Assembly (NCBI GenBank): GCA_046483985.1
Contig: JAWOCD010000033.1
Coordinates: 1-55,973, forward strand
DNA from: Promethearchaeia archaeon
Lineage (GTDB): Archaea > Asgardarchaeota > Lokiarchaeia > Sigyniarchaeales > SOKP01
Direction: 5' to 3'
Length of the DNA: 55,973 nucleotides
The translations under genes were made by a program, and so were the position numbers. Below, one piece after another: positions 15,789 to 30,900 of the stretch (within the stretch, counting starts at the first letter, position 1; every line of letters begins with the position of its first letter). The notes under the pieces are model-generated. The model saw only the letters and a list, made by a program, of their open reading frames with translations. It was not told the origin of the DNA and made no database searches.

Positions 15789-16040
15789 TTGAACTACCAC
15801 ACCATAAATGGCGTGGATTTGTAATCCATCGAGGATTGCTGACATAACATTAGTCTGACATCCTCTTCAAACGCATTCACCGTGGTTCCTACGGCAGAAT
15901 CATTATGAGTAAGGAGTTTGATAGTATTTTCTTCTAATTGGTTTTTCCCTTCTTTTTTGATTTCTTTAATAATCGTCTTTATAAAATAAGGAATAATGAT
16001 CAATAGTTCATCCCATAAACTCCTTTAGACTTAACTTAGG
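15789..16040 (-). mobile_element. Non-autonomous IS200/IS605-type mini-element A with TnpB omega-RNA-like scaffold
   Basis: Minus strand: TTTC|14 nt-AAAG...GGGATGAA (degenerate left end), TTTATAAA box, GCCGTAGGAACCACGGTGAATGCGTTTG scaffold, right-end hairpin CCACGCCA-ttta-TGGTGTGG-tagt-TCAA; translates to the TnpB-tail-like SAVGTTVNAFEEDVRL..QSSMDYKSTPFMVW. Confidence 0.75.
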
Positions 16041-17143: not shown

Positions 17144-17255
17144 TTGAACTACCACGCCTAGAGAGCGAGCAATTCGTAATTCATCGCACACTGCTCATCT
17201 AAGTGCACGAGTCTTACAGATTCACCGTACTCCCCACTGCAGAATAATTATGAAT
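17144..17255 (-). ncRNA. Orphan TnpB omega-RNA-like scaffold B (IS200/IS605 right end) in the alba 3' region
   Basis: Homologous to elements A and C (TAAGACTCGTGCACTTAG, GCGATGAATTACGAAT, ...GTGGTAGTTCAA); begins 3 nt after the alba stop; no left end seen. Confidence 0.72.
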
Positions 17256-17258
17256 AAA

Positions 17259-17543
17259 TTATTTTTCAGGTGGACTTAAGACAATCTCCATGCTTGAAAC
17301 ATTGTTTTTTCGACCATTTTCTCCCTCAAGTCGTTCCGTGTCAATCTTAATTTCTTTATATTCTGTACCTTTGAGAAACCGATTTCTTAGAATTTCGCAA
17401 ACATCCACAGCGTGGGAAATTGCTCTGCCGCGTGCCTTGACAGTACAATCCTCTCCTTTGTTTAGAACCATCATTCCGGCCATAACATAATTCATAGTTG
17501 GTCTGCGACCGACATAGACAGTATTCTCATTTTTATTTGCCAT
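17259..17543 (-). CDS. albA: DNA/RNA-binding protein Alba
   Basis: NTVYVGRRPTMNYVMA, VKARGRAISHAVDV, NVSSMEIVL. Confidence 0.95.
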   Translation of the reverse strand: MANKNENTVYVGRRPTMNYVMAGMMVLNKGEDCTVKARGRAISHAVDVCEILRNRFLKGTEYKEIKIDTERLEGENGRKNNVSSMEIVLSPPEK

Positions 17544-18797: not shown

Positions 18798-19982
18798 TCA
18801 GTCCGTTTGATTTGCATTACGAATTGCTCGTCTTATCGCCTTCTTTTGTATGATTTTCACCGCAATAATGACTCCCGCAACTATTGCAGTAATGCCGATG
18901 GCTAAAATTAGAAAATCCCCAAGCGGAAAATTAGAATCTATATCCCAAGGATAATTCCCCTCATAATCTTGATTTTTTTCTGTGTAATAATTATTATAAA
19001 TAAATTGCTCCACTGTCTTTCCCGTAACTTCAAGGCTGTTCCTGGAAATATGGGATAAATCATCATCTGTGGTATGGTGGTAGGGCCAATCCGGATTTTC
19101 CCAAAAATTAATGATCAGATCTGCTGCTGGAATTCCTTCGTCCACAAATGGTTTATGGTCATCCTCAATTTTATTTACTTCCGGCATTGTTGGAAATTCA
19201 TCTGTGTATCCAAGTGCTCGACCGACTTGAAATAGTTCGTCCAATAGTGAGGAGGTTGAATACTGTTCATCGATAAATTTTAGATTTTCTCCAGCCACCA
19301 TATCTAAGAGGATCATTGCATCAAAATCTTCAGTATTCTTATCATAAAACTCCGTAAGATCTGAAACAAATTCATTAGAGCCTTCGCAAAAAGACCACTC
19401 TTGCATTGCATATTCCCCACTATTATCTTTCCCTTGATCTTCGGCGTCAAAAAGAAGAAACCACAATTGACAATCCAAATTTTCTCGTTGTGCATAGAAA
19501 AGGCGTGCCAATTCAATAATTACTCCACATCCTGAAGCACCGTCATTCGCACCAGGAACGGGAGAATCGGGGTTAGTTTCATCTTTCGTAGCTTTTGCGC
19601 GAGAATCATAATGTGCGCCGATTATAATGATATTTTGATGACCCTCATTAAGTTTAAACAATAAATTTCTGCAATCTGTGGACATTATTGTATATTCATG
19701 CGGATAATATGAAATTTCATCCCCAATCTCGTTAAATGCATTAATAAAATACTGCTGGCAATCAAGACTTGCTTGTGTACCAGGAGATCTATTCCCAAAA
19801 TTTACCTGCGTCTCCACATGAGAATGAGCAGCCTCTTTGTTAAATTTCAATTCTACATCAATATTTTGAAACTCGCCCGCCGAATGAGGCGGAAAAAAAA
19901 ATAAGGTAATAAATAGTCCACCGATTATCATCGGAGTTAAGATACTAAGAACTCGTTTCCACAACAAGGTGAACAACATCAC
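18798..19982 (-). CDS. Membrane-anchored M28-family metallopeptidase / glutaminyl cyclase-like
   Basis: GAHYDSR, GANDGASG, FDAED, LLDMV, DDHKPF, HHTTDD; signal and C-terminal TM. Confidence 0.88.
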   Translation of the reverse strand: MMLFTLLWKRVLSILTPMIIGGLFITLFFFPPHSAGEFQNIDVELKFNKEAAHSHVETQVNFGNRSPGTQASLDCQQYFINAFNEIGDEISYYPHEYTIMSTDCRNLLFKLNEGHQNIIIIGAHYDSRAKATKDETNPDSPVPGANDGASGCGVIIELARLFYAQRENLDCQLWFLLFDAEDQGKDNSGEYAMQEWSFCEGSNEFVSDLTEFYDKNTEDFDAMILLDMVAGENLKFIDEQYSTSSLLDELFQVGRALGYTDEFPTMPEVNKIEDDHKPFVDEGIPAADLIINFWENPDWPYHHTTDDDLSHISRNSLEVTGKTVEQFIYNNYYTEKNQDYEGNYPWDIDSNFPLGDFLILAIGITAIVAGVIIAVKIIQKKAIRRAIRNANQTD

Positions 19983-19990
19983 AGTTTTTT

Positions 19991-20214
19991 TTGAACTAAC
20001 ACGGCCTAAGGAGCGGTGGATTCGTAATTCATCGCAAATCCCTCGCCTAAGTGCACGAGTCTTATAGATGCTCCAAACGCTAACCCCGCAGCCCTTGCGG
20101 TTACACGATGAACTCGGTTATCGTCCATCACTATTTTTATAGTATTAATCGTTTATAAATGTATGTGCGAATCATCCCCGCCTTGAAGAAGGGGGGCATT
20201 CTCACACTCTAGTG
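19991..20214 (-). mobile_element. Complete 224-bp non-autonomous IS200/IS605 (IS608-like) mini-element C carrying an omega-RNA
   Basis: Minus strand: target TTAC (20215-20218)|left end with hairpin CCCCCCTT-cttc-AAGGCGGGG; TTTATAAA; 5' hairpin GATGGAC..GTTCATC; ACCGCAAGGGCTGCGG..GCGTTTGGAG scaffold; right end GAAT...TCAA. Confidence 0.8.
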
Positions 20215-20315
20215 GTAAAAATTGAAGATTATATTTAAAATAAGGTGCTCAAGATTTATAATGTTTTGATTTTAAAAGAAAACAAAAATAAAAGATAAAA
20301 AGAAAGAAAAAAGAG

Positions 20316-22238
20316 TTATTCTTCTTCGAGCATTTCTTTAATTCTATCAATGGTGGTCGGATCTTCAATAGTACTGAGATCTCCCGGTTCTTTTCCCTCA
20401 ACGAGATTTTTAATGGCACGCCGAATGATTTTTCCAGATCTGGTCTTTGGTAATGCTTCCACGAAATAGATTGCTTTTGGGGTTGCAACGGGACCGATTT
20501 GTTCACGTACAATCTGTTTCATTTCATCAGCTAATTCTGGGCTTTCTTCATACCCTTTCTTTAACACAACCATCGCAACGGGCACTTGTCCCTTCACCTC
20601 ATCTTTCACTCCAATACAGCATACTTCTGCAACGGCTTCATGTTTGGTAAAAACTGCTTCCATTTCGCCTGTACCTAGTCGATGTCCCGCAACTTTAATA
20701 ACCTCATCAGCTCGACCTAAAACATAAAAATATCCATCTTCATCTTCAATCGCATAATCTCCAGTAGCATAGTAGTTATGATCGGGAAATACATTATAGT
20801 AAGAGTCCTTATATCGCTGATCGTTTTTATAAACAGTTAAAAGGACTGATGGAGGAGTTGGAGGTCTGGCAACGAGATATCCCTTTTCGCCTTTACCTAC
20901 TTCCTCTCCATTAGCATCTACAACGAGTAAATCCCATCCCCACATTGGTTTCGTGGGACTGCCAGGCTTTATTTTTAATGGAGCAACACCATAAGGGTTC
21001 GCTAAAATAGGCCAACCAGTTTCAGTCTGCCAGTAATTGTCAATAACCGCGATATCCTCTCCTAAGACTTCATTCATCCATTTATAGGTGGGTTTATCCA
21101 ACGGTTCACCTGCCAGATAGATTGTATCTAAGGAACTCAGATCATTGTCGGTGATATATTTTTTATCATATTTCTTTAAAATTCTAAAGGCAGTCGGGGC
21201 CGAAAAGACGGTATTTACATCATAATTCTCAATTATTTTAAACCAAGCATTGGGTTCAGGATAGACTGGAGTGCCTTCATAAATTATCGACGTACATCCT
21301 TTAAATAAAGGAGCATAAATAATATAGGAGTGCCCCACAACCCATCCGATATCGCTTGTTGCAAAGTAGACTTGTCCAGTATCCGTATTAAAAATGGACT
21401 TCATTGAATGATAAAGCGCAACAAGATGACCTCCCGTATCACGGACCACACCTTTTGGTTTTCCGGTCGTTCCGCTGGTGTAGAGAATATATGAGGGATC
21501 TGTGCTGTTCATTACCTCTGGCTCAACAAACACATCATCCCCTTTTTCTTCCATCAAATCATCCCAATAGACATCTCTGCCCTCTTCCATAGAATGATCA
21601 ACTAGTTCCCGATTCACTACTATGTTATGGGGGACTTTATATTCGGTCGTCTCTAATGTGTCATCAACAATCGTTTTCAGATCAATCTCTTTTCCATTCC
21701 TCACACTTCCATCTGCACTAATTATAACTTCAGGCTCAGAATCCTCAATTCGTACAGAGAGTGAGCGGACTGAAAAGCCTGCAAATACAACTGAATGAAT
21801 TGCACCAATTCTTACACAAGCAAGCATAGCAATGGCAGCTTCGGGGATCATCGGTAAATAAATAACAATTCTATCTCCTTTTTCGACTCCATAATCTTTC
21901 AGAACGCTTGCAAACCGGTTAACCCGGCTTAATAATTCTTTATATGTGATCTTTTCTTCCTTTCCGAGCTCAGAATACCAAATAAATGCATTGCGATCTG
22001 GAGCTTTTTCTGCCCATCGGTCTACCGCGTTATAACAAGTATTAGTCTGACCTCCAACGAACCATTTATAAAACGGAGGATTACTGTCATCGAGAACTTG
22101 ATCCCATTTTTTATACCAATGGATATTCTCGGCAATAGGCTCCCAGAATTCTGCTGGATTCTCTAACGATTGCTTATGCATTTTTTTATATTTCTTAAGA
22201 TTTTCTTTATGACTCATATTATTTTCCTCATAATTCAT
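20316..22238 (-). CDS. acs: Acetate/propionate--CoA ligase (AMP-forming)
   Basis: YILYTSGTTGKPKG, SDIGWVVGHSY, DNYWQTETG, GRADEVIKVAGHRLG, LPKTRSGKI; could be PrpE-type. Confidence 0.9.
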   Translation of the reverse strand: MNYEENNMSHKENLKKYKKMHKQSLENPAEFWEPIAENIHWYKKWDQVLDDSNPPFYKWFVGGQTNTCYNAVDRWAEKAPDRNAFIWYSELGKEEKITYKELLSRVNRFASVLKDYGVEKGDRIVIYLPMIPEAAIAMLACVRIGAIHSVVFAGFSVRSLSVRIEDSEPEVIISADGSVRNGKEIDLKTIVDDTLETTEYKVPHNIVVNRELVDHSMEEGRDVYWDDLMEEKGDDVFVEPEVMNSTDPSYILYTSGTTGKPKGVVRDTGGHLVALYHSMKSIFNTDTGQVYFATSDIGWVVGHSYIIYAPLFKGCTSIIYEGTPVYPEPNAWFKIIENYDVNTVFSAPTAFRILKKYDKKYITDNDLSSLDTIYLAGEPLDKPTYKWMNEVLGEDIAVIDNYWQTETGWPILANPYGVAPLKIKPGSPTKPMWGWDLLVVDANGEEVGKGEKGYLVARPPTPPSVLLTVYKNDQRYKDSYYNVFPDHNYYATGDYAIEDEDGYFYVLGRADEVIKVAGHRLGTGEMEAVFTKHEAVAEVCCIGVKDEVKGQVPVAMVVLKKGYEESPELADEMKQIVREQIGPVATPKAIYFVEALPKTRSGKIIRRAIKNLVEGKEPGDLSTIEDPTTIDRIKEMLEEE

Positions 22239-30856: not shown

Positions 30857-30900
30857 ATTCATCACCACCCTAAAGGACAGTGCTTTCGAGCACTCTAATG
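30857..30900 (-). mobile_element. Orphan IS200/IS605-type left end (same family as element C)
   Basis: Minus: TTTC|CATTAGAGTGCTCG-AAAG-CACTGTCC-ttta-GGGTGGTG-ATGAATT; aligns with the element C left end CACTAGAGTGTGAG-AATG-hairpin-ATGATT. Confidence 0.65.

Follow-up and report, generated by a model that had tools for sequence, protein, structure and literature searches.

A protein-less IS608-like mini-transposon with a TnpB guide-RNA scaffold, inserted before a peptidase gene of a Loki-type Asgard archaeon

PATEs are protein-less IS605 derivatives with subterminal palindromes, described in Haloquadratum, where some of them keep the C-terminal region of tnpB (PMC3119063). Standalone omega-RNAs, as reported by Altae-Tran et al. 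(PMC10691335), are mobilised and are functional in trans, and the guide used by TnpB is the DNA found just beyond the right end of the element (PMC10055086, PMC10691335). Elements of this kind are already described (PMC3119063, PMC10055086, PMC10691335), and the idea that one of them represents the minimal unit for RNA-guided homing, put forward in a preliminary description of the locus considered here, is indeed the published view for such elements. In the literature searched, no description of such a family in Lokiarchaeia was found.

The locus lies in a stretch of 55,973 nucleotides (contig JAWOCD010000033.1 of assembly GCA_046483985.1), the whole of which is here called the window. The assembly is a metagenome-assembled genome of a Loki-type Asgard archaeon (Promethearchaeota), with 128 contigs, 4.06 Mb, 35% GC and 97% completeness. 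Positions 19991-20214 of the window are a protein-less IS200/IS605 (IS608-like) mini-transposon, namely a PATE with a TnpB guide-RNA scaffold, composed of a left end, a TATA box, the 3' end of tnpB (omega-RNA) and a right end. The PATEs of haloarchaea and Geobacillus and the family in the window are alike in being protein-less IS200/IS605 derivatives with subterminal palindromes, without terminal inverted repeats and without target duplication; both are also multi-copy and heterogeneous, with a tnpB C-terminal remnant, and hence the omega-RNA, in some copies, and for both it is presumed that mobilisation and guide use take place in trans. Differently from the described PATEs, the family of the window resides in a Lokiarchaeia-type Asgard host, has a TATA box directly before the scaffold and is accompanied by no matching TnpB found in the genome.

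Another close system is IS608 of Helicobacter pylori, which has in common with the window family the TTAC left flank, the TCAA terminus, AAAG and GAAT 5' of the hairpins and an imperfect right palindrome with an unpaired T; this comparison draws on published knowledge of the IS608 motifs. Conversely, the element of the window contains neither tnpA nor tnpB and its sequence is unrelated to IS608 beyond these short motifs; moreover, the parent elements found in relatives are tnpB-only (IS1341-type), whereas IS608 is a tnpA-tnpB element. Finally, the scaffold resembles the omega-RNAs of the ISDra2 and ISGst TnpB proteins, since all of them overlap both the right end and the 3' end of tnpB and have the flank past the cleavage site as guide, and it differs from them in having no Rfam match (either at gathering or at E<=1 thresholds), a fold derived from family covariation only and no protein partner in cis. 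The features of the locus are the following.

18798-19979, minus strand: M28-family peptidase gene (Pfam PF04389, E 3.6e-32), intact, with an N-terminal membrane anchor, starting at a conserved ATG.
19971-19990, minus strand: would-be omega-RNA guide, 20 nt of flank, AAAAAACTGTGATGTTGTTC, containing the ATG at 19979-19977; assigned by position only.
19991-20214, minus strand: whole 224-bp non-autonomous IS200/IS605 element (PATE), no ORF; 23 full-length copies with sharp boundaries, and excision restores colinearity with the two relatives' loci L189 and L190.
19991-19994, minus strand: TCAA, closing the element; cleavage tetranucleotide of the right end, where copy similarity stops.
19999-20023, minus strand: right end, with GAAT (20023-20020) before an imperfect palindrome that the ssDNA fold and private changes reveal as eroded in the window copy.
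19991-20130, minus strand: homologue of omega-RNA scaffolds, made up of four RNA helices and the right-end hairpin (covariance model R1, helix pairing, overlap with TnpB ORFs).
20152-20159, minus strand: TTTATAAA, archaeal TATA-box-like motif pointing towards the peptidase gene, conserved in copies; putative promoter.
20165-20214, minus strand: left end, outer stem GTGTGA/TCGCAC around an imperfect inner hairpin (copy alignment, pair counts, ssDNA fold).
20215-20218, minus strand: TTAC target tetranucleotide, left flank, outside the element (TTAC in 18 of 23 copies; empty sites of L189 and L190).
20232-20239, minus strand: TTTAAATA, promoter box of the preliminary description, present in the window and not conserved in L189 and L190.
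20254-20262, minus strand: ATTATAAAT, candidate native TATA box by conserved sequence and spacing, now 274 nt from the ATG.
20316-22238, minus strand: acetyl-CoA synthetase (acs) gene, upstream (Pfam ACAS_N, AMP-binding, AMP-binding_C).

Read on the minus strand, TTAC is followed by CACTAGAG...(224 nt)...GTTAGTTCAA and then by AAAAAACT GTG ATG; we take the tetranucleotide at 20215-20218 to be the target of TnpA and, presumably, the TAM of TnpB. TTAC (20218-20215), the element (20214-19991), TTTATAAA (20159-20152), GAAT (20023-20020) and TCAA (19994-19991) are all located where the preliminary description had placed them, and the hairpin GATGGAC/GTTCATC is present in the window copy. The 224 bp have no ORF, thus neither tnpA nor tnpB is found inside; lacking a Y1/HUH TnpA of its own, the element is non-autonomous.

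Search of the host genome with blastn revealed at least 23 full-length copies, 61-86% identical to the window copy, plus many partial ones; with nhmmer, the matching segments rise to 81. When the copies are aligned together with their flanks, similarity starts right after the left flank and stops at ...GGTAGTTCAA, while left and right flanks are unrelated between copies; the boundaries are therefore not due to chance. The left flank is TTAC in 18 of the 23 copies and one mismatch off in the others, with a binomial P of about 2e-39 given a frequency of TTAC in the genome of 0.4% per position, and TCAA is the terminus of nearly all 23.

The closest orthologues of the peptidase obtained in a large protein search are 73% and 71% identical to it and similar in length, and belong to the loci L189 (GCA_053584915.1) and L190. 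In the former the gene order is the same, acs-M28-217-aa gene-...-alba, with a 178-nt spacer, and in the latter the acs-M28 arrangement is kept, with a 150-nt spacer. Both have an uninterrupted site, in which TTTTAC is directly followed by AAATCTGCGATG; it reads ...ATTATTTTAC AAATCTGCG ATG CTG TTC ACT... in L189 and ...TCATTTATC AAAACTGCG ATG CTG... in L190. Removal of the element from the window joins ...TTTTTAC directly to AAAAAACTGTG, i.e. its own empty-allele junction, and the window without 19991-20214 aligns gap-free across this junction with both loci; the alignment was made with the element removed, since plain MAFFT with the element included put the gap in a wrong place. The empty allele, which the preliminary description had proposed to look for, is thus present in both relatives with no target duplication, and the 224-bp boundaries given there hold, being supported both by the copies and by two empty orthologous loci. 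Insertion next to a fixed tetranucleotide, on its 3' side and with no duplication of the target site, as seen from the empty sites, and the absence of terminal inverted repeats, with subterminal imperfect palindromes at both ends (the right one eroded here), are the features of the IS200/IS605 family, in agreement with the earlier view of an IS608-like, protein-less mini-element with both ends, TATA box and omega-RNA scaffold. The empty orthologous sites, together with the at least 23 dispersed copies, indicate mobilisation.

Since the site is still empty in the closest available relatives, the insertion is placed after the lineage had separated from them. None of about 45 more distant orthologous loci from GTDB representatives has the element next to the peptidase gene; among GTDB species representatives the orthologues are 50-60% identical and mostly non-syntenic, with acs found upstream in two loci only and never directly adjacent. 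No near-identical strain was found either by exact peptidase look-up in public assemblies or by an exact 29-mer scan of metagenome contigs. In a more distant relative, G009, a small divergent gene is located between acs and the peptidase (L111 939-1397, minus strand), indicating that the content of the spacer varies across genera.

As proposed earlier, the insertion, on the 3' side of TTAC, separates the native promoter region from the start of the peptidase, and the would-be guide spans the start codon. The start codon itself has to be revised: the peptidase ORF is 18798-19982 when counted from the GTG that had been suggested as start, which is not borne out, since L189 and L190 share the ATG at 19979 and both have GCG in the place of the GTG. 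The conserved ATG, 11 nt from TCAA, is thus the start. The public gene call gives the peptidase 389 aa, taking as its start a TTG that lies five codons further in than this ATG (window 19967-19982). Regarding the native promoter, the window, L189 and L190 share ATTATAAATCTT (20262-20251) without a single difference, at 50, 50 and 49 nt, respectively, before the ATG when the window is taken without the element. The preliminary description had assigned the promoter of a near-leaderless mRNA to TTTAAATA; with the element excised, this box would begin 33 nt ahead of the GTG, as reported, but it is not conserved in the two relatives, whereas ATTATAAAT is, and the latter is most likely the better candidate for the native peptidase promoter. 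Because ATTATAAAT is conserved in sequence and spacing, a short leader is favoured over a near-leaderless mRNA: probably, the gene had a TATA box with a leader of ~25 nt, inside which the element was inserted. The acs stop codon is followed by runs of T6, T5 and T5, likely a terminator.

Seven helices were read off an alignment of 20 copies and tested by pair counts, using slid 3' partners as control. Paired cells in the helices are 86.8%, compared to 34-41% in the controls, and double changes were found at 12 pairs, concentrated in the left-end hairpin (helix 2) and in helices 4-6, although most of these events separate two subfamilies and few are independent; in helices 1-2 of the left end, an A-T to C-G swap occurs in 8 copies. 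The pair counts reveal a conserved secondary structure, as expected for an omega-RNA. For the whole element RNAalifold gave a poor consensus, which was replaced by the helices from the alignment, and the single-sequence RNA fold of the element is not more stable than shuffles (z +0.25).

In the family consensus, the left end consists of AAAG followed by an 8-bp hairpin nested in the outer stem GTGCGA/TCGCAC; in the window copy the 4 nt 5' of this hairpin are AATG instead of AAAG, and the left end folds as ssDNA with -9.5 kcal/mol (z -2.4). The consensus right end is formed by GAAT, then by the imperfect palindrome CCATCGCCC-TTTA-GGGCGTGG with one unpaired T, and finally by TAGTTCAA. The palindrome of the window copy, with private changes at alignment columns 209, 215, 223 and 230, reaches only -1.3 kcal/mol (z +0.4), versus -7.3 in a consensus-like copy; thus, the element called complete in the preliminary description is so in its anatomy, but not in its right-end hairpin. 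Between the ends, the TATA box TTTATAAA is identical in 16 of the 20 aligned copies, with conserved spacing to GATGGAC, and ends 22 nt upstream of the first scaffold hairpin, which is the usual TATA-to-start distance in archaea.

A covariance model of the last 140 nt, named R1, scores the window copy with 147.5 bits (E 1e-30), as high as other family members, and the RNA part of this copy is not obviously broken. The model recovers three scaffold copies in the window, at 19991-20130, 15789-15908 and 17144-17264; the last two, both on the minus strand and with 87 and 59 bits, respectively, comprise scaffold and right end without left end or TATA box, the former having remnants of TnpB C-terminal codons in front.

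The origin of the scaffold is indicated by its distribution in relatives. Of 100 genomes sampled from the same taxonomic family, 31 have the R1 motif, spread over 10 of 13 genera, and in several of these genomes the matches overlap the 3' end of ORFs of 404-451 aa. Five such ORFs were scanned and revealed HTH_OrfB_IS605, OrfB_IS605 and Cas12f1-like TNB domains, identifying full-length TnpB proteins; since it overlaps the 3' end of full-length TnpB genes in relatives, the segment is an omega-RNA scaffold. The left flanks, the hairpins and the ...TAGTTCAA termini of the TnpB elements in relatives match those of the mini-element. As in PATEs, the same ends flank tnpB fragments in the host genome and full tnpB genes in relatives, and deletion intermediates, with TnpB C-terminal codons before the scaffold, are found in the host genome (contigs C31, C41 and C74 and window 15789-15908). 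A related family of ~247 bp with TTAC flanks occurs in another genus, G022, with 10 full-length copies among 13 loci examined, 75-94% identical.

Other fragments of the family were observed in the host genome. A solo left end (nhmmer positions 1-44) is located at window 30857-30900 on the minus strand, and about ten solo modules of left end plus TATA box (positions 1-65) are followed by unrelated sequence (C85:102278, C85:61424, C107:22529, C69:20046, C18:31511, C53:3894 and others); some pairs of these modules have a different downstream segment in common, suggesting other mini-element families with the same left end. Tandem left-end fragments, ~54 nt apart, are present at contig ends (C125:11-122 and C127:4-159) and may be either an assembly artefact or a real array. 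A nested insertion at an internal TTAC was considered as the cause of alignment breaks near position 198 and was rejected, since the breakpoints do not coincide with TTAC.

Taken as a whole, the locus is most likely explained by an old, lineage-specific PATE insertion, which is now a decayed relic in the peptidase leader. In the proposed history, an IS1341/IS605-type transposon would have lost its protein-coding core; what remained were the left end including the TATA box, the final ~140 nt of tnpB, which encode the omega-RNA scaffold, and the right end. In single-stranded form, the element would then have been inserted by a Y1 transposase acting in trans, at a site 3' of TTAC that lies 11 nt before the peptidase ATG and downstream of the conserved native TATA box, probably inside the short 5' leader; transcripts of the peptidase from the native promoter and/or the element TATA box would read through the scaffold into the gene.

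The age and decay of the element are visible in its sequence. The nearest relative of the window copy is 85% identical, no two aligned copies exceed 92%, and private differences affect 20 of the 211 comparable columns of the window copy (roughly 9%). Ends, promoter, linker and scaffold have singleton changes at nearly the same density, a pattern that neutral decay would produce, and no region is clearly depleted of them, so that selection on individual copies was not detected in this way. As to the proteins, the 97%-complete assembly has only C-terminal scraps of a cognate TnpB, and pieces of its N-terminal and central parts were not found; contig C31 starts inside the open-frame 3' end of a cognate-type tnpB. 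The only full-length TnpB of the genome, on contig C97, is 28% identical to the cognate-type TnpB of a relative (L162) and has a different scaffold and right end. Likewise, no intact tnpA was found in the assembly: three full-length copies are each frameshifted at a different place (C67:10700-11800, C66:69900-71000 and C97:900-1800, in the first of which the SPSY tyrosine region at the C-terminus is lost) and the remaining ones are partial. As the assembly is broken up at IS copies, its gaps might hide both a complete cognate tnpB and an intact tnpA.

Two further lineages were noted in this survey. C97:1-1800 and about 15 contig ends (e.g. C116, C16, C26, C27, C74 and C96) contain a second tnpA-tnpB IS, whose near-identical copies break the assembly and which was apparently active recently; its TnpB has a glycine where relatives have the RuvC-II glutamate (IIVGDLN versus ILEDLN), and may be nuclease-dead or have a relocated catalytic residue. 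A third TnpB lineage is represented by fragments only (C18:104495-105017, C24:23624-23891, C14:4407-4442, C98:58301-58336 and others), with a different scaffold and a right end 88-91% identical to that of the mini-element over 35 nt.

These data bear on the possibility that the element is still an active homing unit, as the preliminary description implied: the element would use its own TATA box to transcribe an omega-RNA, whose guide of ~16-20 nt would come from the beginning of the peptidase leader and ORF; this RNA would direct a TnpB provided in trans to cut the empty allele at TTAC plus guide, and recombination would then restore the element. The anatomy fits the published model, in which the TAM TTAC is on the left and the scaffold abuts the flank, and the presence of TCAA, not TTAC, beside the guide prevents self-cutting (PMC10055086); moreover, standalone omega-RNAs work in trans (PMC10691335), the TATA box lies 22 nt before a scaffold that still scores highly with R1, and a cognate-type tnpB 3' end is present at a contig edge. 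However, the cognate TnpB body is missing and the sole full TnpB belongs with another scaffold, every assembled tnpA copy is broken, the divergence of all copy pairs and the even spread of changes are those of neutral decay, and with an eroded right-end hairpin excision, the very event that homing would repair, is itself unlikely. Present-day homing is thus improbable, and the copy in the window is probably a fixed fossil that is no longer mobile.

Runs of more than three T are absent from the sense strand of the element and the peptidase ORF is intact, making the read-through into the gene suggested in the preliminary description plausible and, given the intact ORF, expression by this route probable; promoter, transcription start, read-through and the omega-RNA itself are predictions from sequence. 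The regulation of the gene by 3' processing of the omega-RNA, also suggested there, is speculative. A neutral 1.18-kb ORF stays open in 0.3% of simulations at the private-change rate of the element and in 5% when the rate is halved; some of the private changes may be older than the insertion, and the argument is weakened accordingly. Probably, the peptidase gene stayed functional with the element in its leader. The same observations could be read in a different way, namely that the promoter and scaffold of the element were co-opted as promoter and 5' UTR of the peptidase, a structured leader or a bound protein controlling its expression: the native TATA box was displaced by 224 bp and the ORF is nevertheless intact after the private divergence described above, and the element TATA box points at the gene with no terminator-like T-run in between. 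This exaptation appears slightly less probable than homing, since the window copy has no sign of selection beyond the neutral pattern, the copies have no orientation bias (12-13 of 23 are co-oriented with downstream genes, and nothing suggests a general promoter-donor role for them), and simple read-through from the native promoter accounts for the same facts. More doubtful again is the idea that the peptidase mRNA is a natural omega-RNA-mRNA fusion, with a complete TnpB scaffold as leader and the start region of the gene itself as guide, in which a trans-encoded TnpB, possibly unassembled, or 3' processing of the scaffold would gate translation; if true, an Asgard archaeon would here have turned the guide RNA of a transposon into a cis-regulatory leader.

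That the 224 bp are ancestral intergenic sequence, deleted in the relatives, is hardly conceivable: the short form was seen in two relatives only, with 71-73% protein identity, but this is a dispersed repeat, the ends of which fall exactly on those of the gap; TTAC|...TCAA| delimits the gap as in 18 of the 23 copies, and the element is likewise missing from some 45 more distant orthologous loci.

The old PATE insertion has practical consequences for the annotation of the locus, since it explains the 333-nt intergenic gap upstream of the peptidase, and the comparison with the empty sites corrects the start codon of this gene and identifies its likely promoter. The current understanding of IS200/IS605 biology is unchanged. 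A TnpB-derived PATE family is now documented in Loki-type Asgard archaea, with exact boundaries and an empty site; the recurrence in G022 of the same layout of left end, TATA box, omega-RNA and right end suggests that the guide-RNA module travels without its nuclease.
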